Source: an uncultured archaeon (lineage in GTDB: Archaea; Asgardarchaeota; Thorarchaeia; Thorarchaeales; Thorarchaeaceae). Taken from it: 17,768 nt of DNA. Both the position numbers and the translations under genes were made by a program. How positions within the stretch are numbered: the first letter of the stretch is position 1; each line of letters begins with the position of its first letter. The notes under the pieces were generated by a model. It saw nothing but the letters and a program-made list of their open reading frames with translations. It was not told the origin of the DNA and searched no databases. Below, piece after piece: positions 765 through 9,384 of this stretch. The stretch is taken from positions 1 through 17,768 of the forward strand of contig CAZPWM010000064.1 in assembly GCA_964590575.1 (NCBI GenBank), read 5' to 3'.

Positions 765-868
765 ATCTCAAGTCTACAAACATATTTCGCCCGTCGTATA
801 TAGTATAAGCTCTTTCAAGAAAGTTGTTTATTTACTCAATAGTGTTGAAAGTTTCCATTGTTTTCAGA

Positions 869-3800
869 TTACTTCAAATCGTTTCTCAGTTTCAAGCCTC
901 GCTCATAATACTCTCTTCTCGTTCCCACGCCTAACTTCCACAACTCAACATCATCAGGTATGACCCCAAATGCCTTTTCTACTTCATTCCTCGAGTCTTC
1001 GGGATTGTTATTACCCATTAGTATCTCAGCCTTCAAAACTCTAGCTATAAACAGGTACCACTTTACTTCCTCATCTTCTAAATTCATAGTCACGAGATGT
1101 GAGATATTTTCATCAACTCGTTCTAGTGCCACATCAAATCGCTCTTGTCTGAGATAATACTCCACTAACTGGTTTGCATGGGAGCCCATAGCCTTGAGCT
1201 TACCCTCCTCTCGATATTCCTCAATAAACATAATCAATTCAGCCTCTTTGCGGTCGATACCATCTGCTTCCAGTTCATCGTCATCAAGAATTCCTCTCAA
1301 CATCATACGAAACTCCTCCTTGTTCTCAAGAGTATAATCAGACAATGCTCCCTCATCTAGGACATCAATAACTGAGTCTGTATCATCATCTTCACCTAGT
1401 GTGAACTCCTCTTCATAGATCACAACCTCATTCTCTTCCCAGATACTCAGAGTTATTCTCATCCCTTTTCCAGTTTGTGCAACATCAACTCGACACAGAG
1501 GCTTTTCATCTCCCCATCCATAGGCCTTGAGTTGTTCTCTAATACCATCAAGCTCCTCATCATAGTTGTAGATGTTGTCTCTTGATGCACCAATCATCTT
1601 CAACTCCCCGACCAGTTCTTCTATCATGCCCTCGAGATTTAAGGTTCCATTCAGTTTCATAGTAAATGTCTTTCCCATCCAAGACTGTTTAGTCAGTGTT
1701 GAATTTAGAGTCCAATGAATCATCCCCTTCTTGAACACACTCGATAATATCCACTCTCCCTCTGGGAGTGAGAACTCCTGGTCCTCATGTTCCTCGTCAT
1801 CATAGCTGAGAGCATGAACAAGCCGTGACTCCTCAGCTAATCCTGATGGCAGTCGCACACGTGTTAGTTGACTTACATCGATTTCAAGGGTGAAGTCTTT
1901 TCCAATACTAGCATCAACAAGTTCCTCACATTCAACAAGAAGTTCCAACTCATAGGGGTTCATCCATTCATCCTCAAGTGTCTTCAACTGCGACTTCTTT
2001 GGCAGCCCTTTGAGCTTGACCGTGATGAAGTTGAACTCACCCTTGTTTCGACGAACTTCATCTACCTCTGCCACAAGGGTGATTGTCCCTCCATCCCTTG
2101 TTTGGAGAAGCTCTGCACAAGTCTTGGGAAACAGATTCCCCAGTGAGAAGAGATCAACACGATGAACGAGAGGTGTGAAAAATGAGAGATATATGACATG
2201 CGCCTTTTCTCCACGTCGGTCGACGACAGCAGAATACTCTATGTCTTTCTTATGGTCCCAGAACAGCAGTCCACCATCATCTGTTCTTAGAGGTGTACCC
2301 TTCAAGTATGGGTGCTTCAACAAACCAATGAGCTCATACGTGTTTCTCAGCTCGTAGGAATGTCCTGAGCTGAACTCTACACGATAGCGCTCTGTTTCAA
2401 GGTTAATACTCACTTGGGTTTTCACATCCTCAATCTCTTCCGAACCTTTGAAGGCTCCAAAGAGCAACGAGTCCACATTTGCATCAACCTTGAGAATCTG
2501 CTCAGGTCTGCTTTTCTCCAGTTCCAAGAACAGACTCTCCGGAATTGGTGAGAGTTTAAGCCAACGTAACAGTCGTCCATCATCTCTGCTTGTGGCAAAC
2601 TCAAGAACCACAGGTGCAGTCCATTTGTCCTCTCCCTCAATCTCATCAATGAACCAGAGGATACAGGTTTCACCGATATTCGTAAGAGCTATCTGACTTC
2701 TCGCTGAGGATTCAGTCATAGTCCTAACAGAGGTCCTCAACGTTGATGGGTCAGTTATACATTGATTCCAGCCGAGCTTCAGTCCGTGACCTTCTAGATC
2801 TGATACAAGACCAATGAGTGGTTGGTCTGCATCTGGAAGCACAACCCATGCATTTGGTACTCCTTCCCTCTCCATCCAGATAAGCTGTCCATAAACTACA
2901 TCCTCGGTGGAAATTTGAGGTTGTATGGTATCCCTCAGACACGTTGCGCGGAACATCAGCCTCGAATAGATGAATTGGAAGTCATACTGTGATTGTGCCG
3001 TCTCTTCCGCGTGATCCATTGGCTGAAAACCCATCTGATACAGTTGCCATTCAACCATCGACTCCCATAGGGTTATGACAAGACCTTCAGAGGGTTTGAG
3101 AGAGTGTGTCTTGATGACTGTGAGAAGAGCAAGGAACAGGTTGTTCCCATAGAGTGAGATGATATCAGGACACAGCTCCTTCGCCATCTGCAGTACAGCC
3201 CTGTTGTCAGTTGTAAGGATGTCACCAAGTGTTTCTCTGGAGCCTTCAACCTCACTCCAGATTTGAGCTCTCCATGGATCACGAAGTATGATGTCCCGTA
3301 CTTCTTGAAGGGCAGTGACTAGAGTCTCTTCATCATGAGTGTCTAAGCGTACATCTACACACAGTCTGACTATATCCCGACAACATGAGTAAAGGTTACT
3401 GTTCTTGTGAAGTTGTTTCATGAGGAACTTTGCCGCACTCCTGAGTCGCCTAATCTCTCTCTTACTAGCTGATAAGGTGTTCACCTCATCCAGTCCCGTC
3501 CTTTGATACATTGGGGGCCTTCGAGAAACCCCCACCTCATACTCTTGGTCATTAGAATCAATGGGTATCTTGTCATAATACCATCCTCTCTTGATCTTTG
3601 AGAACTCAATATATTGTTTCTTTGACCTGGGAGGTCGTGGAGGAGGTCTATCGGGAACAAAGTTCATCCTATCAGTGAGCAAGGGAGAGTCATTGGATGT
3701 GACAGCTAGCGAGACGCTCTGCCATTTTTCTTCCGTGGTTTGTTCTTCATGCGTGGATGACATCTCACGCCTTAGAAGACTCGGAACGAGAGTCATTCCA

Positions 3801-6517
3801 ATGTTCTGTAATTGGTTCACAGTCTCCGATGTGAGAGATGTAAGTGATGAGTGAACTTTCTTGAGTGTCACAGAACGACCGTACATTGGCTCGCCCTCGA
3901 AGTCACCCCCATAGACCTCTGCTCCAGGAACTACTCCTTCTCTTCTGGAGAGCCCTCTGTATTTTCGCGCCCACCCCTTCAAGTGTGGTACCCTTATGGG
4001 TTGTATCCATGGAGGTGCTTTTGTTGGAGTGTCTTGAATGATTAGTCTTGTGTCCTCGTTTCTTGGAGTTCGCCAGCCAAAGACCCGAGGAGCAATTGGG
4101 ACATTGTAGATGATCTCATCAATGTGAAACCGTCTGGGGGAGTCGTGACGAAGAGGTCGTACACAAGCTCTCTGATAGTGCTTGTTCATCCTAGTGTGAG
4201 AGACTCCATTGTCGATCCAAATCACATTCACGTTTTGAGAGGGCAGAGTGTCCAGAAGTCGGTCCTCCAAATTTCTTAGAATGTTCATTTTTCTTGGTGA
4301 GGTCATTTCTTTCAGTTGTGCCCACCCATCAACTATGATGATCCTCTCAGAGTCGGTTGTTTCCTTGCTATGAAGTGGCTCTAAGACACTTACGAGTTCA
4401 ACGTCTGTACCAGAGAGAACCGAGTCAATAGTAGCTCGCAAGTTGAGGAAGGTGACATTATCCAAGAGTGCTGTCAGTGTCTTGTGCATCCCTCTCGTAA
4501 TCTGTCTCTTTTTCAGCAAGATGTCAAGACCGAATCTTCTCTTCATGAGATGGTCAGTGGGATAGTCTCCCAAAAAATCTAGCCAATAGACCTGTAGCTT
4601 CTTGTTCGATGGTTGAGAGACCTCCTCGATATGATTCAATAAGTGCCAGTTCCGAGAAACCCATGCTGCAGCATTCCCGAAAGAAGTAGATGAGGGAATC
4701 GAAACATAGTGGGTCAATATTCGATCATCTGACACTCTCTCCTTGAATGGGTCCTCAACGGAGAGTGACAAAACAGGAGATTGCTCCTTGAAGAGTTCAT
4801 CCAAGTTCTCGCCCTCAAGGAGCAGAAGTGCAACTCGTAGAGTGGCACCCTCCTCATCCTTTGAGTCGAAGGTGAGTGTTCTGGATTCGTTCTTACTAAG
4901 CTCGCCAGTGAGAATCCCATTGGTCAGTTCATCCAGAAGAGTGTGGAATGCATCAAAGACCTCTGAGTAATCTTGGTCAGTGTCAAGTACAATGACTCCT
5001 TTCCAGAGGTTCTTTGGAATAGTGACACCAGCAGGGTTTATTCTCTTACTCTCTTCGAGCAATGCTTTCTCATAAGCCTCGAGCTGTGTCAGGACCCGAT
5101 CATCCGGGTCTGATTCTATCGTTCTTCCCCACTCGTCTTCTGATAAAACCCGTTTCCATGCATAGAGTGCTGGGGGCATTTCTTTTTTCTTTCCGGTGTG
5201 GATGGCATAGAGATTGAAGTCAAAAGAGGTCTTCGACTTGACCTCAATGATCATCACTGGTGTCCACAACACAAGCCCCTTGATGTTCCGTCTGATGAAA
5301 AACGTAAGATCTATCCTCCCCTTCTCTCCAAGCCCTGTAACTGGAAGCTCACCAACAATCAGAATTGATGAAGGTTGGTCAAGCATCTTATCTCCTGCAA
5401 AGATGACTGACCTTAACGACTTGGGGTGGTGAAGGTCTGAGAGTAGAATTCTGTGCCAGTCGTTTCCCTCTTTCTGAGAGAGTGCGAGGACTTGGTCAAA
5501 GAGCTTTTCAACATCCCTATCGACAATTCTTCCTTGGTCGATATGGTCTAGTATCTCGGAGTATCTCTCTCTTGTCTTTGCATCATGAGTTTCAGCGATC
5601 AGCTCGCTTACTTTGGCCCATAGGATGTCTACAGTGGGTTCTGGGATGTCTATATCCAGCTCTCTTGTGATGGATTGCCTCTTTCCCACATGGCTGCTAT
5701 ATAGACTACGAATCTCTAGAACTAGCGTTCTCAGCTCTTTGTCAGCATCAGGCTCGAAGTAGTTTCTACCACTCTTTCCCTCAGAATAGACATAGTCCAA
5801 GAACGGAGTGAGTCGATGGATCAACAACCTGATGTATCTATGAGCATCAGAACGTGGAACATTGTGGATGAAACACTGACGGACCAGCTCCACGCTATGG
5901 GCACGAATCATATCAACAAAGTCAAGTCCTGGGAGAGTGGGATGAGTTAGCAACACTGTCGGGAATTTTCTATTTCCTTTGTATCCTGCTTTCCAGTGCG
6001 TTTCATTGGCATCATCATGGGCATACTTGGATACATGCTTCTTCTGGATTGTTGCCTTCGTTCCATCTGAATATTTCCTTATCTGGAATTTCTCTGGCTC
6101 TGGAAAGGGGTATCTCGTCGTAGCAAGGTCTCTCAAACGTGCTCCAAGATAGTTGAGTAAAGCATTTAGTGGTCCAACTGTGCCTTCCTCCCAGCTATAT
6201 ACTCGTTTGAACTCATTGTTTCCAAAACGTCGTGTGCTGTGCCAGAGGATCTTGAGAAAGAATCTTCTCAGGTTTGCCTCTGCGTTCTTAATTGGTGTGA
6301 AATCAAGTCGCGATTTTCCCACGCTTTCTCTTCTTCTCTTTTGTTCTGCTCTAGCCTCGCTCCAGTGTGTCAGAATACTCTCTAGGTACTTGCAAGTCTT
6401 CTTGTCAACCCGTTTCCTTGCAAGTCTGACCAAAGCAGTTAGCCCAGTGTAGATTGATGCTGTTAGGATGGCATTGGGGTTCATCTCTCTAGGCTTGCGG
6501 CCCATTGCAATCAGCAT
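869..6517 (-). CDS. Giant (1882 aa) multidomain protein: basic N-terminal region, RecB/Cas4-type PD-(D/E)XK nuclease, degenerate RecA/KaiC-like P-loop fold, acidic TPR-like C-terminus
   Basis: Uninterrupted 5.6-kb ORF. Motifs E390...GRID403...IIE425VK427S...Q478LEAY482. RecA-like order of elements YVSIPSSTSFGN (no GKT), VYWLD, IIIVD730GW, VIWID. The true start may be ATG 6505 (MGRKPR), given the TATA box at 6534-6541. Confidence 0.85.
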   Translation of the reverse strand: MLIAMGRKPREMNPNAILTASIYTGLTALVRLARKRVDKKTCKYLESILTHWSEARAEQKRRRESVGKSRLDFTPIKNAEANLRRFFLKILWHSTRRFGNNEFKRVYSWEEGTVGPLNALLNYLGARLRDLATTRYPFPEPEKFQIRKYSDGTKATIQKKHVSKYAHDDANETHWKAGYKGNRKFPTVLLTHPTLPGLDFVDMIRAHSVELVRQCFIHNVPRSDAHRYIRLLIHRLTPFLDYVYSEGKSGRNYFEPDADKELRTLVLEIRSLYSSHVGKRQSITRELDIDIPEPTVDILWAKVSELIAETHDAKTRERYSEILDHIDQGRIVDRDVEKLFDQVLALSQKEGNDWHRILLSDLHHPKSLRSVIFAGDKMLDQPSSILIVGELPVTGLGEKGRIDLTFFIRRNIKGLVLWTPVMIIEVKSKTSFDFNLYAIHTGKKKEMPPALYAWKRVLSEDEWGRTIESDPDDRVLTQLEAYEKALLEESKRINPAGVTIPKNLWKGVIVLDTDQDYSEVFDAFHTLLDELTNGILTGELSKNESRTLTFDSKDEEGATLRVALLLLEGENLDELFKEQSPVLSLSVEDPFKERVSDDRILTHYVSIPSSTSFGNAAAWVSRNWHLLNHIEEVSQPSNKKLQVYWLDFLGDYPTDHLMKRRFGLDILLKKRQITRGMHKTLTALLDNVTFLNLRATIDSVLSGTDVELVSVLEPLHSKETTDSERIIIVDGWAQLKEMTSPRKMNILRNLEDRLLDTLPSQNVNVIWIDNGVSHTRMNKHYQRACVRPLRHDSPRRFHIDEIIYNVPIAPRVFGWRTPRNEDTRLIIQDTPTKAPPWIQPIRVPHLKGWARKYRGLSRREGVVPGAEVYGGDFEGEPMYGRSVTLKKVHSSLTSLTSETVNQLQNIGMTLVPSLLRREMSSTHEEQTTEEKWQSVSLAVTSNDSPLLTDRMNFVPDRPPPRPPRSKKQYIEFSKIKRGWYYDKIPIDSNDQEYEVGVSRRPPMYQRTGLDEVNTLSASKREIRRLRSAAKFLMKQLHKNSNLYSCCRDIVRLCVDVRLDTHDEETLVTALQEVRDIILRDPWRAQIWSEVEGSRETLGDILTTDNRAVLQMAKELCPDIISLYGNNLFLALLTVIKTHSLKPSEGLVITLWESMVEWQLYQMGFQPMDHAEETAQSQYDFQFIYSRLMFRATCLRDTIQPQISTEDVVYGQLIWMEREGVPNAWVVLPDADQPLIGLVSDLEGHGLKLGWNQCITDPSTLRTSVRTMTESSARSQIALTNIGETCILWFIDEIEGEDKWTAPVVLEFATSRDDGRLLRWLKLSPIPESLFLELEKSRPEQILKVDANVDSLLFGAFKGSEEIEDVKTQVSINLETERYRVEFSSGHSYELRNTYELIGLLKHPYLKGTPLRTDDGGLLFWDHKKDIEYSAVVDRRGEKAHVIYLSFFTPLVHRVDLFSLGNLFPKTCAELLQTRDGGTITLVAEVDEVRRNKGEFNFITVKLKGLPKKSQLKTLEDEWMNPYELELLVECEELVDASIGKDFTLEIDVSQLTRVRLPSGLAEESRLVHALSYDDEEHEDQEFSLPEGEWILSSVFKKGMIHWTLNSTLTKQSWMGKTFTMKLNGTLNLEGMIEELVGELKMIGASRDNIYNYDEELDGIREQLKAYGWGDEKPLCRVDVAQTGKGMRITLSIWEENEVVIYEEEFTLGEDDDTDSVIDVLDEGALSDYTLENKEEFRMMLRGILDDDELEADGIDRKEAELIMFIEEYREEGKLKAMGSHANQLVEYYLRQERFDVALERVDENISHLVTMNLEDEEVKWYLFIARVLKAEILMGNNNPEDSRNEVEKAFGVIPDDVELWKLGVGTRREYYERGLKLRNDLK

Positions 6518-6533
6518 ACTTTCTTAATATTAA

Positions 6534-6541
6534 TTTATAAA
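6534..6541 (-). promoter_or_regulatory. TATA box of the giant gene
   Basis: TTTATAAA about 30 bp upstream of ATG 6505, the usual spacing for a short-leader archaeal transcript. Confidence 0.55.
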
Positions 6542-6542
6542 G

Positions 6543-6589
6543 AATACGTTTCTAATGGTGAATTGAATAAGGCATATTAGAACCCTATT
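6543..6589. repeat. Imperfect inverted repeat (12/14) in the divergent promoter region, possible operator
   Basis: AATACGTTTCTAAT (6543-6556) and ATTAGAACCCTATT (6576-6589), 19-bp spacer. Confidence 0.5.
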
Positions 6590-6630
6590 TTTAAAATAAA
6601 ATGCTCATAATCCTTTATTATAAGAACGGC

Positions 6631-6645
6631 CTAATAAGTTTATAA
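6631..6645 (+). promoter_or_regulatory. BRE/TATA promoter for the tnpB leader transcript
   Basis: CTAATAAG-TTTATAA, predicting a start site near 6665-6670. Confidence 0.55.
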
Positions 6646-6741
6646 CCTCCGAAATAATAGAAAAGGTAGGAGTTCAAAACCTTCCTGATTGATATGAAAG
6701 GGAGTGAACTCGAAAGAGACAGGTCAGAAGTTTATAACCTC
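6636..6741 (+). repeat. Exact 14-bp direct repeat AAGTTTATAACCTC (6636-6649 and 6728-6741)
   Basis: Read directly from the sequence; 78 bp lie between the copies. Confidence 0.95.
6665..6741 (+). ncRNA. Putative crRNA-like guide unit in the tnpB leader (repeat-like 6702-6727, guide from 6728)
   Basis: 6702-6720 is complementary to 8462-8479. The segment ends in AGGTCAG, resembling archaeal IS200/IS605-type right ends, and is followed immediately by the 14-nt promoter match. Function is inferred. Confidence 0.45.
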
Positions 6742-6752
6742 AGGTGAAACAG

Positions 6753-8504
6753 ATGGGTCGCTCCAAAGGCACAATAATCAGCGTGAAAGTCCCAATACGA
6801 AGGGACTCTATGACTGATAGACAGAAGACTCGACTCTCGCAGATAACTGGAAGGGATACGCGAGTCATCAGGGCGTATCTTGGAGTGATTGAACGTCATG
6901 AAGATGAGTTGTTGACAGGTCACAAAAGAACGAGAATTGATGCTTCGAAACTGGATGAACTCACCCTGACTGCATCCAAAGGTAAGGCAAATAGAAATCA
7001 GGTCCCTCACGATTTCAAGGTTCGATTTCCAAATATATCCGCGAATGAGTTTCAGGAGTGTCGAGACACTGCCATTGCTATGTGGCAGAGTTATCTTGAG
7101 CTGGGCGGTTCCAAACCTTTCCGGATAAAGGGACACTCCACTCGAAAGATTCCACGATTTGCATTTACTCAACGTTTTGAGCTTGTATATAGTCCTGAGC
7201 TCGTAATTCGACACTGGTTGAAACTCAGGGACTCACTTGATTCAGTCAGTGAAGGGCGAGTACGACATGACAAGCTCATGATTCCCCTCTCTATCTCTTC
7301 TTTTCATCTAAATCGGTTGCAAGAGGGAGAGGTTAAGACAGTCCGTATCAACAAGGACTCCAGTCGTAAGTGGTGGGCTATCTTCACGGTGACTCTTTCT
7401 GTTGATAGAATCGATACTGTTGGCAAACCCCCTGCTGTACTGTCCATTGACCTTGGGATAAACAAGGCGGTTTGTTCAGTCCTGCTCACAAGAAAGGGCC
7501 ACAAACAGATTCGCTACTGGAAACAGGAGGACAAGCTTCAGCGGATGAAGGTACTGGATGAGAGGGTTGCGTCACTCCAGCGAGAAAAGGAACATCTCAT
7601 CGCAAAGGGTGGGAATCCCGACAGAGTAACTTTCCAGCTCAGGCGTCTACGTGGAAAACGAGAACGTGTTAGTACGGAATATGACAGGAAGCTTGTGCGA
7701 GATATTTCCGATCACATCATAGAGATGACCGATGTCTATGACCTTTATGTTTCAATAGGTAGGGTGAAAGGAATCAGAAATGCTGCCAGAAAGGGTAATT
7801 GTAGAGGGAGAAGATTCAGAGGGATGATCCATCGCTGGGCTTTTGCAAGGATTCGCGACATGTTGGAACACAGACTCACTTCCCTTGGGTTTGATCCCAA
7901 GAAGTACAACACAGTCCCGGAGCAATGGACCTCTATCATGTGTCACAAGTGTGGACACAAGGGAATACGCCCAAAACAGAACCTCTTCATCTGTACCACC
8001 TGTGGACTGAAGACAAACGCCGACCTGAATGGCGCTTCCAATATTGGGAAGCGCTTTATTATGCTCATCCCTTCACTGAGAGATGAGAACGGACTAGGGA
8101 TGTGGCTCACTCCCAGAGATAGAGCTATACTGAAAGCCCGGAGGAAGACTCGTGCTTCTGATGGGAAGTCCGCACTCCCCCAGGGAACACCAGACCCGAA
8201 GGGGGAGTCCGTGGCCGACTCCTATGACCAGACTTCAATAGTGGAGTTTGCGAGGTGTGAAGACCCTGTCATGGTAAGTGCTGTGGAAACACCGTCTGCT
8301 ATCGCACCAGCTGGTGAGTGTGAGGGAATGCAGCGGACAGAAACCGGGTCCCATCAGAGGAACGATGTTCCAGTGAAGAGGGGCAAAGCTCACGACACTC
8401 TGAAAGATTCCGATCTTTTGGAAGTTGGTGACAGCAGTCGTGAGAAGGGTGGAACGCAGAAGTCTCTTATAGTTCACTCACACTATAAGAAATGGGTTCT
8501 ATAG
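6753..8504 (+). CDS. tnpB: TnpB/Cas12f-like RNA-guided endonuclease with a rearranged (Fanzor-type) RuvC active site and a long C-terminal tail
   Basis: Numbered from the 586-aa ORF: RuvC-I SID236LG, RuvC-II position VSIG339RVKGIR, relocated E393 (VPEQWTSIMC), zinc finger C400/C403/C417/C420, RuvC-III NAD427LNGASNI. ATG 6753 is preferred because AGGTGA (6742-6747) is a canonical archaeal RBS. Confidence 0.92.
   Translation: MGRSKGTIISVKVPIRRDSMTDRQKTRLSQITGRDTRVIRAYLGVIERHEDELLTGHKRTRIDASKLDELTLTASKGKANRNQVPHDFKVRFPNISANEFQECRDTAIAMWQSYLELGGSKPFRIKGHSTRKIPRFAFTQRFELVYSPELVIRHWLKLRDSLDSVSEGRVRHDKLMIPLSISSFHLNRLQEGEVKTVRINKDSSRKWWAIFTVTLSVDRIDTVGKPPAVLSIDLGINKAVCSVLLTRKGHKQIRYWKQEDKLQRMKVLDERVASLQREKEHLIAKGGNPDRVTFQLRRLRGKRERVSTEYDRKLVRDISDHIIEMTDVYDLYVSIGRVKGIRNAARKGNCRGRRFRGMIHRWAFARIRDMLEHRLTSLGFDPKKYNTVPEQWTSIMCHKCGHKGIRPKQNLFICTTCGLKTNADLNGASNIGKRFIMLIPSLRDENGLGMWLTPRDRAILKARRKTRASDGKSALPQGTPDPKGESVADSYDQTSIVEFARCEDPVMVSAVETPSAIAPAGECEGMQRTETGSHQRNDVPVKRGKAHDTLKDSDLLEVGDSSREKGGTQKSLIVHSHYKKWVL
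8155..8500 (+). ncRNA. Putative omega/reRNA (tracr-like) scaffold overlapping the tnpB 3' end
   Basis: Nested stems: 8157-8166/8349-8358 (10 bp), 8168-8173/8333-8338, 8174-8181/8201-8208, 8222-8228/8268-8274, 8229-8250 hairpin, 8359-8371, 8389-8396/8437-8444, 8403-8418, 8465-8473/8482-8490. TnpB RNAs are known to overlap the gene 3' end. Confidence 0.75.
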
Positions 8505-8547
8505 GCTTATCATAGTAGAATCAACATTAGAGGCAGTGAGAGATACG

Positions 8548-9384
8548 ATGTCCACAAAGGTGTCCATACTGGGTGTCTGGCTTATCGAGCGAGGCAGCGG
8601 TAGGAATCTTGTGTCTAGGGCGTACTCTGACGCAGTCAAGCTAGATATGGATTTGATTGCACCATTCCTCTCTGCTACTCACACCTTCATCGATAAAGCT
8701 TCAAATGAAACTCTCAAGACTGTAGACACTGAAACCAACAGATATGTCTGGGAAGCCAACGACCATCTCCTCTTTGTCATGGTCGTTTCCAAAGCGGCAC
8801 GGCTTGGACACATGCGTTTCATTCTCGAATATGCTCTCAATGAATTCATGAACAAAGAGGTTCCTTCTGACTCTGATATTGATACTCTTTTGAAGAACTG
8901 GCATGGAGCTCCTAACACATTCACAAAATTTGGTAAGTTTGTGGATGAGCTAGTAACTCAGTATGAGGCGACTGATGAGAGTCTTGTGGCTGGGAAGTCG
9001 ATGGATTGTCTTGAGGTCTATAGCCATCTTTTCAGAGGAATTATGCGCGTAAAAGGCGGAAAGCAGAAAAAGGAAGCAATTGTCAAACGAATGAAAGGAC
9101 TCACTGAACCACTTATTGATAGATATCCCTATCTTTCTCAGGTTCCAATAGATGCAGCTGGTATCGAGGTTCTTGACATTGACATAGGCAATGTTGCATA
9201 CCAGCATCTTAGAGATTCATTAGAGGAGCTACTGCGACTTCTTGGTAAAGTCGTTCGTGAGGTAGTAACCCCAAAGGCATACCGCGATATGTTGTTCGAT
9301 CATGTAATGCCATATGTGAAACATGATATACAGAGGCTTCAGACATATGCGATTCTTGACGACGTTATTAGATATCTATTCTAA
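8548..9384 (+). CDS. Longin-like domain protein (Asgard eukaryotic-signature type) with a helical C-terminal domain
   Basis: N-terminal pattern ILGVWLIERGSGRNLVSRAY...LIAPFLSATHTF...LKTVDT...RYVW...LLFVMVVS...ILEYALNEF fits the longin beta-beta-alpha-beta-beta-beta-alpha fold. Alternative start GTG 8536. Confidence 0.65.
   Translation: MSTKVSILGVWLIERGSGRNLVSRAYSDAVKLDMDLIAPFLSATHTFIDKASNETLKTVDTETNRYVWEANDHLLFVMVVSKAARLGHMRFILEYALNEFMNKEVPSDSDIDTLLKNWHGAPNTFTKFGKFVDELVTQYEATDESLVAGKSMDCLEVYSHLFRGIMRVKGGKQKKEAIVKRMKGLTEPLIDRYPYLSQVPIDAAGIEVLDIDIGNVAYQHLRDSLEELLRLLGKVVREVVTPKAYRDMLFDHVMPYVKHDIQRLQTYAILDDVIRYLF

Follow-up and report, generated by a model that had tools for sequence, protein, structure and literature searches.

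The best-described counterpart of the locus considered here is the insertion sequence ISDra2 of Deinococcus radiodurans. Its omega RNA, also termed right-end element RNA (reRNA), is a sense RNA that runs over the 3' end of tnpB to the right end of the element and takes its guide from the flank. According to the sections of the ISDra2 study that deal with this RNA, it is 247 nucleotides (nt) long, with a scaffold of 231 nt, of which 116 nt were modelled, and its 5' 115 nt can be deleted without an effect on cleavage (PMC10097598). The same sections describe an overlap with tnpB residues 335-408, the last of which (376-408) show disorder and little conservation and are not needed for cleavage, and a pseudoknot that involves the guide-adjacent nucleotides. 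Archaeal tnpB genes of the IS1341 type carry 3' sense overlapping transcripts (sotRNAs) with a stable terminal UUCA-loop hairpin, and their non-autonomous derivatives, the palindrome-associated transposable elements (PATEs), express this RNA as well, as the relevant parts of that work report (Gomes-Filho 2015; PMC4615843). TnpB clades with a rearranged RuvC-II site have been predicted to be still active in the passages devoted to them (Altae-Tran 2023, PNAS; PMC10691335). Studies of TnpB guide RNAs have relied largely on small bacterial representatives, in which a scaffold of about 116 nt suffices. The locus analysed here belongs to an uncultured archaeon of a Thorarchaeota-like lineage (GenBank assembly GCA_964590575.1, contig CAZPWM010000064.1; "the window" denotes the whole stretch analysed, 17,768 nt) and holds a tnpB gene whose 3' part contains a conserved structured RNA of about 410 nt. 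With a probability of roughly 80%, positions 8090-8500 of the plus strand encode the guide-RNA scaffold (omega RNA or reRNA) of the overlapping TnpB gene. Most likely, the known arrangement of such an RNA in the tnpB tail is present here in an unusually large form.

The likeness to ISDra2 extends over several traits. At both loci, a sense RNA covers the 3' end of tnpB up to the right end of the element, with the guide derived from the flank (predicted here), and the C-terminal peptide that it overlaps shows disorder (here also predicted) and little conservation; the candidate pseudoknot described below would, as in ISDra2, involve guide-adjacent nucleotides. The differences concern mainly size. 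The ISDra2 scaffold has 231 nt, of which 116 suffice, compared with about 410 nt here, and a tail of 33 amino acids (aa) contrasts with one of 138 aa, 111 of them disordered, so that the conserved scaffold is about 3.5-fold and the tail 3-4-fold larger in the archaeal element. A sequence-only reading of this DNA, made before the present analysis, had already judged the RNA to be longer than typical characterised TnpB reRNAs, which is true in comparison with the ISDra2 RNA. Furthermore, there is no sequence or Rfam similarity between the two, and the TnpB described here has a glycine at the RuvC-II position. The sotRNAs and PATEs, as far as they are described in the parts cited, share with this locus the UUCA terminal hairpin, which reads GUGAG-UUCA-CUCAC in many copies, and the occurrence of derivatives lacking TnpB. 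However, they are haloarchaeal, and no Rfam match at E ≤ 1 other than the chance match given below was obtained here, the HgcC family among the keywords of that work not being checked by name. The rearranged-RuvC clades resemble the present protein in the replacement of the RuvC-II glutamate by glycine and in the NADXN motif at RuvC-III; the main-text passages concerned mention neither a partner of 1,900 aa nor a scaffold of 400 nt (PMC10691335).

The evidence for the RNA comes from its fold and from covariation between copies. The sequence-only reading had proposed a structured RNA of about 340 nt at 8155-8500, and the letters it quoted match the sequence. Folded alone, this stretch reaches -130 kcal/mol (z = -3.1), and none of 100 dinucleotide shuffles is as stable. 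A consensus obtained with RNAalifold from an alignment of 21 tails (A1) has 113 pairs, 56 of which are compensatory. A larger alignment (A2) contains 46 tails, comprising all fetched matches that span query positions ≤35 to ≥400, shorter matches being excluded; its RIBOSUM alifold consensus has 125 pairs in 24 helices, which form five domains (D1-D5). In A2, 93.5% of the cells are paired, compared with 85.1% after shuffling and 40-44% when the arms are slid, and 72 of the 125 pairs are compensatory (46.1 ± 3.2 in shuffles). The number of compensatory cells is 500, whereas shuffled alignments give 155.7 ± 10.1 and slid ones 71-127. None of 500 shuffles reaches the observed value, a count that is not to be read as a probability, as the copies are related; the slid controls preserve this relatedness and are much lower. 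Among 5736 cells, G.U occurs 594 times and A.C only 126 times, and this excess indicates the plus strand. The covariation expected of a long sense-strand RNA within the C-terminal tail of TnpB is thereby present. The proposed end at about 8500 was correct, while the start lies about 65 nt further upstream, at about 8090.

The fold proposed from the single sequence, when projected on the 21 homologues, was right in part. Three of its helices covary in A1, namely ACTCCCCC/GGGGGAGT (4 of 7 pairs compensatory), CTCACGAC/GTCGTGAG (3 of 8) and the hairpin with the TCCG loop (9 of 10). The 10-bp long-range helix TCTGATGGGA/TCCCATCAGA finds no such support: 73% of its cells are paired, 8 of 16 pairs show mismatches only and one is compensatory, and both arms lie in covarying local hairpins, at 8142-8165 (inside D1) and 8348-8384. 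Support is also lacking for the GAAA at 8286-8289 as the hairpin tetraloop for which it had been taken. It is not such a cap, because it adjoins, at a junction, the compensated long-range helix that closes D4. This helix pairs CUGUG (8281-8285) with CGCAG (8455-8459) and is replaced by the compensatory CCAUG/CAUGG in three sequences; the domain also holds the 8348-8384 hairpin, the CTCACGAC/GTCGTGAG helix and the TCCG-loop hairpin. D1 is closed by a pair that reads C-G in 20 and A-U in 19 of the sequences of A2, and this domain overlaps the last structured helix of the TnpB protein.

At its 3' terminus, the RNA may be tied back to D3. The strand GGUUCU can pair with AAGACC, an internal loop of that domain, and 83.9% of the cells do so, compared with 20-60% in slid controls. 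Three of the six pairs are compensatory, with variants such as ACGACC/GGUCGU and CCGACC/GGUCGG, but 18 of 500 shuffles match that count, and the pairing is therefore given as a candidate pseudoknot with modest confidence. Beyond about 8500, the 46 copies are no longer similar, and their 3' flanks differ. The predicted guide taken from this flank coincides in part with the TATA/promoter region of the gene that follows. The first ~20 nt of the 3' flank, CATAGCCAAGCTAGGCCA, are common to five elements of five different genomes (L004, L015, L045, L046 and L048), two of which diverge immediately after this stretch. ARAGORN finds no tRNA gene as a common 3' flank of these five elements. The positions of all features are summarised in the table.

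Coordinates of the features of the tnpB locus in the window (compensatory pairs refer to alignment A2)
Feature	Position	Strand	Basis or remark
Structured RNA module, putative omega RNA/reRNA scaffold	8090..8500	+	A2 covariation, starts of mini-elements, RNA contigs
D1, three-way junction closed by CGGACU/AGUCCG	8090..8172	+	9/25 pairs compensatory
D2, hairpin ACTCCCCC/GGGGGAGT and inner stem	8174..8208	+	8/11 pairs compensatory
D3, CCGUGGC/GCCAUGG stem and inner hairpin; internal loop AAGACC at 8260-8265	8209..8274	+	11/23 pairs compensatory
D4, multi-branch domain closed by CUGUG/CGCAG	8281..8459	+	39/55 pairs compensatory
D5, terminal hairpin with conserved AGTTCACTCAC	8462..8493	+	5/11 pairs compensatory
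Candidate pseudoknot strand GGUUCU, 3' terminus	8495..8500	+	pairs with AAGACC 8260-8265 (unpaired loop in D3)
Predicted guide segment, flank 3' of the scaffold	8501..8520	+	conservation among copies stops at ~8500; guide function predicted
TnpB open reading frame	6753..8504	+	583 aa from ATG 6753; Pfam/NCBIfam profiles, AlphaFold2
TATAG, left junction of the 7.7-kb insertion	799..803	.	recurs at 8500-8504; 11 orthologous loci without insertion
Conserved 5' block with hairpin GAGTTCA/TGAACTC	6668..6728	+	four-copy alignment
R', variable segment of 13-17 nt between 5' block and Shine-Dalgarno-like GGTGA	6729..6742	+	exact repeat at 6637-6650
R, upstream copy of R'	6637..6650	+	TATA-like box; CTAAT 6632-6636 just before; promoter and target-adjacent motif (TAM) readings putative
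1882-aa protein, family unassigned, divergent from TnpB	869..6517	-	D403...E425-x-K427 motif; RecA-like domain at aa ~595-847

The module is widespread and can exist apart from TnpB. Three further full copies are present in the same genome, with 82, 79 and 67% identity, and the tail DNA (8060-8510) has matches in 43 of 86 related genomes of the family, the identical 43 being found among 87 genomes of the class. Fourteen of the 46 aligned copies (L010, L011, L017, L021 and L055-L064) are mini-elements without TnpB, in which a left end of about 45 nt is joined directly to the module at 8087. All 14 keep the whole RNA including D1-D3, so the module survives as a unit without the TnpB core. These elements correspond to non-autonomous derivatives of the PATE type or of the type of miniature inverted-repeat transposable elements, in which the ends and the RNA are kept and tnpB is absent. 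An in-frame ATG is located exactly at their module start, equivalent to 8085-8087. A TATA-like CATATAC lies about 24 nt upstream of this ATG. In the window, a TATA-like TTTATTAT, which the other three copies of the genome do not conserve, is found at 8054-8063, about 28 nt before the module start.

Public RNA libraries support the expression of the module without being decisive. Twenty-one metatranscriptome runs contain 5-20% of the sampled words of the element, and the four with the highest share, which come from four studies, were compared. All four yield contigs that begin at 8094 or 8096 and reach 8320-8422; several of these are free of mismatches, and 8096 is the first position of three. 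For the TnpB core there are one error-free contig of low depth (6981-7212) and one partial match of 34 nt, both from a single run. Most of the TnpB core and positions 8423-8500 have no contig cover, and such a gap proves nothing.

The neighbourhood of tnpB in the window, which includes genes for TFIIB, Yip1 and a longin-like protein, is that of archaeal DNA. The TnpB reading frame matches PF07282 of Pfam with 48.2 bits (cut-off 26.3) and the NCBIfam profile NF040570 (guided_TnpB) with 98 bits, just under the cut-off of 100; the latter profile stops at aa 434 of 583. Solved TnpB and Cas12f chains likewise align until about aa 434 (residue ~437-439 in a 586-aa translation from a GTG start). The catalytic core ends there, at nt ~8054, and a basic helix continues to aa ~471. 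Since both the family profile and the homology to solved chains end at about aa 434, the part of the reading frame past nt ~8055 is an extra. The aspartates of RuvC-I and RuvC-III and a CxxC...CxxC zinc finger are present, whereas the RuvC-II residue is a glycine. Among the aligned relatives that span the site and have at least 380 aa, almost all share this glycine, and one has glutamate; E390 is almost invariant and a candidate stand-in for the RuvC-II glutamate. The missing glutamate was first read as the mark of a nuclease-dead, TldR-like TnpB. This reading was dropped because the glycine occurs in nearly all relatives and the literature describes a rearranged, probably active class. Inactivation of RuvC, a single immobile copy and a fixed host target, as in TldR, are not found for this TnpB; on the contrary, the genome has four full copies and partial ones, relatives contain many mini-elements, and the insertion site is polymorphic. 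The protein is probably of the rearranged-RuvC type, for which the cited work predicts continued activity.

The element itself could be delimited by comparison with empty sites. In 11 genomes of the same genus, the downstream gene is preceded by the uninterrupted site ...CGTCGTA|TATAGGCTTATCAT, the left flank of which is read in the window at 780-798. As this flank ends at 798 and the orthologous sites are empty, positions 799-8499 are a 7.7-kb insertion, whose right end at 8499/8500 is set by the 11 empty sites and coincides with the loss of similarity between copies. The insertion carries a gene for a protein of 1882 aa on the minus strand and tnpB on the plus strand, in head-to-head orientation, and landed in the TATA-box region of the longin-like gene that follows. 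A second copy of this two-gene unit (C2, G000:C2:58780-66500) is homologous over window positions 883-8501, with 74.7% identity, and has AACTCTAGGT as a direct repeat of 10 nt on either side; before about position 883 of the window, the two units cannot be aligned at their left ends. Flanking repeats are not an expected outcome of classical IS200/IS605 transposition. The element differs from this type in its flanking repeats (TATAG twice here, AACTCTAGGT twice at C2) and in that no Y1 TnpA was found, the 91%-complete genome giving no PF01797 match. The Aloposons of Heimdallarchaeia, transposons with giant genes, were also considered and set apart; the passages describing them report twin genes of 3,000-6,000 aa and insertion at tRNA sites and contain no mention of TnpB (PMC8813620).

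The large neighbour of tnpB has no Pfam or NCBIfam match. It has at least 172 relatives, all unnamed or "hypothetical" with the exception of one "TPR repeat protein"; "Candidatus Thorarchaeota archaeon" is a label that sources give to relatives. Over 71 sequences, the motif columns show D403 and K427 without exception and E425 in 69, the other two having aspartate. The AlphaFold2 model has a predicted local distance difference test (pLDDT) score of 84.2, and fold searches with it are dominated by the RecA-like domain, for which 2ekd is the best structural match (Z 12.6, root-mean-square deviation 3.6, 175 residues), alongside RadA, Rad51 and KaiC. This RecA/RadA/KaiC-like domain lacks the Walker A motif GxxxxGK[ST]. 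The D...ExK motif resembles that of PD-(D/E)xK nucleases, a comparison of the motif only, as the fold searches reflect the RecA-like domain. Together, the motif and the domain make a role with nucleic acids plausible. Homologues of the giant gene stand head-to-head with tnpB at 22 of 29 left-end loci in other genomes and in three of five copies in this genome.

The position of the module supports the interpretation as a guide-RNA scaffold. It runs on the sense strand from just past the end of TnpB/Cas12f homology, over the 3' end of tnpB, to the right end of the element, and it combines a covarying structure with a variable 3' flank, as omega RNAs do. The RNA would derive either from the 3' portion of the tnpB transcript or from a start of its own at about 8087-8096, and it would fold into the five domains, with its 3' end GGUUCU possibly held by the internal loop AAGACC through the pseudoknot. 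Transcription would continue into the flank from about 8501, and this flank would serve as the guide. TnpB, with its RuvC-II glycine, would then bind this scaffold, which would direct it to DNA that matches the flank. Several observations weigh against this interpretation. The module belongs to no Rfam family at the gathering threshold across the whole window, and at E ≤ 1 over 6560-8600 the only match is a chance one to P11 (E 0.83); for the same reason, a group I intron or another curated RNA family is not indicated. The absence of a Y1 TnpA from the 91%-complete genome and the repeats of 5 nt around the 7.7-kb insertion and 10 nt around the C2 copy are unlike classical IS200/IS605 elements. 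The motifs at the two readable junctions disagree (CGTA|T here, TTGAAC at C2), which leaves the TAM undefined. The RNA contigs show neither strand, true ends nor abundance, the libraries can contain DNA, and contig cover is scarce over the last ~80 nt (8423-8500), the part expected to lie closest to TnpB. Moreover, D1-D3 may serve a purpose other than guiding, because ISDra2 needs a scaffold of only about 116 nt. Binding of the RNA by TnpB, use of the guide, processing and the reason for the open frame are what we infer here.

The overlap of the RNA with a reading frame raises the question of which of the two is under selection. Mean pairwise diversity at codon positions 1/2/3, calculated from seven full copies, is 0.217/0.149/0.508 in the TnpB core (6753-8086), as is typical for coding DNA, and flat in the tail (8087-8498; 0.233/0.242/0.249), of which the part 8087-8154 keeps some periodicity (0.17/0.21/0.35). 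AlphaFold2, run with an alignment of 51 sequences, gives a confident TnpB model up to about residue 472, including the basic helix 454-471, whereas residues 473-583 have pLDDT values of 31-47 and almost no secondary structure (one helix of four residues). The disorder suspected from the single sequence is thus borne out by the model. The flat codon diversity and the low pLDDT imply that selection does not act on the amino-acid sequence of the last ~111 residues. Conservation acts on nucleotides and structure rather than on the protein. Judged from codon diversity and the predicted disorder of these residues, the 138-aa tail appears to be a by-product of a frame that crosses the scaffold.

Nevertheless, this frame is kept open. 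As previously noticed for the window, it continues to 8504, and it is open to the end of the element in all four copies of the genome. Over 8091-8450 of A2, the TnpB frame contains one stop codon, compared with 271 and 424 in frames 1 and 2 and with 39.0 ± 4.9 (minimum 25) in column shuffles. With the sequences serving as their own control, the TnpB frame has 0 stop sites that only TnpB-linked copies carry, compared with 20 and 13 in the other two, and internal indels are mostly three columns long, as seen by eye in the alignments and not counted. An apparent accumulation of tail-frame stops in the mini-elements was rejected, as these stops fall in the ~28 nt before the module; inside it, the frame is open in 13 of 14. 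Because stops are depleted in the TnpB frame, translation through the scaffold, or the possession of some tail, is under selection. On the evidence of the alignments, premature stops and frameshifts are selected against, and reading through the scaffold, or having a tail, matters. The locus thus offers a clean natural case of a sequence that is constrained as RNA and yet kept translatable, and it poses the question of why ribosomes traverse the scaffold.

This depletion, like the lengths of the indels, also favours the assumption that the tail is a functional polypeptide, free-standing with ~133 aa in the mini-elements, and that the RNA structure is secondary. The in-frame ATG in all 14 mini-elements, their mostly open frame and the occurrence of stand-alone tail reading frames of 123-154 aa in the protein library fit it as well. 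Such a polypeptide is nonetheless improbable given the lack of codon periodicity and of a predicted fold. The private stops of the mini-elements themselves (1, compared with 4 and 3) are too few to show a coding constraint, and their ATG may exist simply because the left-end hairpin arm reads TATGAAC. A different objection accepts the RNA and divides it: only the 3' part (about D4-D5, ~220 nt) would be the guide scaffold, and D1-D3 (8090-8274) would form a separate cis element of the mRNA with a role in, for example, processing, stability, translation control or folding. The dispensability of nucleotides -231 to -117 in ISDra2, according to the section on deletions (PMC10097598), suits this division, as does the overlap of D1 with still-structured protein. 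Many short genomic matches span only the last ~55-90 nt (query 333-412, 358-412), which suggests that no part is shared more widely than the 3' module. However, D1-D3 covary as strongly (28 of 59 pairs compensatory), are retained in every TnpB-less mini-element, are the part best covered by RNA contigs and are linked to the 3' end by the candidate pseudoknot. The division of the module is therefore a tentative alternative, unlikely but to be reckoned with.

The subterminal hairpins of IS200/IS605-type ends suggest yet another possibility, namely that the folds act mainly as hairpins of single-stranded DNA at the transposon ends that are read by a transposase, and not as RNA. Complementary sequences, GAGTGAACT and AGTTCACTC, are present in the left block and the terminal hairpin, and DNA hairpins tolerate G.T pairs. 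On the other hand, 24 helices over 410 nt far exceed what end recognition needs, contigs from RNA libraries selectively cover the module, and the genome has yielded no Y1 transposase, all of which makes this explanation very improbable. The sequence-only reading had supposed that the extra RNA domains may dock a partner protein. With the 1882-aa protein as this partner, the domains would be a docking platform in a three-part RNA-guided machine. The frequent head-to-head arrangement with tnpB, the movement or duplication of both genes as one 7.7-kb unit, and the invariant D...ExK motif and RecA-like domain speak for such a machine. Against it, the full RNA is kept beside TnpB without an adjacent giant gene at three loci (C11, G031:C56 and G056:C78) and in the 14 mini-elements, and paralogues of the giant gene exist without TnpB on C6, C69 and C123. 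This evidence is weak, because giant paralogues at other genomic loci might work in trans; docking is thus weakly disfavoured and remains rather doubtful. In a family present in 43 of 86 related archaeal genomes, structural selection acts on some 410 nt with 24 helices, which suggests that the RNA does more than hold a guide. Candidates for such functions are folding, processing, stability and contacts with other factors.

Upstream of tnpB, a second region resembles the scaffold end. The 3' end of the conserved 5' block, AAAGAGACAGGTCAG, is similar to the 3' end of the scaffold (AAGAAACAGGTCTT in other copies), and in the C11 copy both have AAGAAACAGGTC in common. The GAGTGAACT of the block (6668-6728) is complementary to AGTTCACTC of the terminal hairpin (8462-8500). 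The segments R and R' form a direct repeat of 10-17 nt, whose two copies are about 80 nt apart and whose sequence co-varies between elements. They match over at least 10 nt in 15 of 18 elements and over at least 12 nt in 14 of 18, whereas cross-locus controls reach at least 12 nt in only 13 of 306 cases; the 18 elements, which come from the window, from the series L066-L089 and from C2, C11 and C141, are not all independent. R follows a TTAAT-like motif.

In TldR repressors and Cas9 tracr-L, a short guide-like segment matches a promoter beside a motif of the TAM type or the protospacer-adjacent (PAM) type. A similar use can be imagined here. The block of 60 nt that mimics the scaffold 3' end, followed by R' matching the TATA-containing R, would be a second guide, by which TnpB might bind its own promoter, regulating itself or marking its own left end. 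The analogy is functional only, and the use of R' as a guide is conjectural; in contrast to TldR, the catalytic change is a clade-wide rearrangement and not an inactivation, and the element is multi-copy and insertion-polymorphic. It is rather unlikely, though conceivable, that TnpB, the ~410-nt RNA and the 1,900-aa protein constitute one new RNA-guided mobile unit with a second guide, similar to a CRISPR RNA, in the tnpB 5' leader. The giant gene, the insertion flanked by short repeats with no Y1 TnpA found, and R/R' may point to an undescribed RNA-guided mobile system, which would sit in the archaeal lineage closest to eukaryotes.

The gene downstream of the insertion (8536-9384, plus strand) encodes a protein of 282 aa whose only match, to a longin domain, is weak (PF19036, E 0.0074, under the cut-off). 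Of the 28 genomes of the genus, this genome included, 24 conserve the gene.

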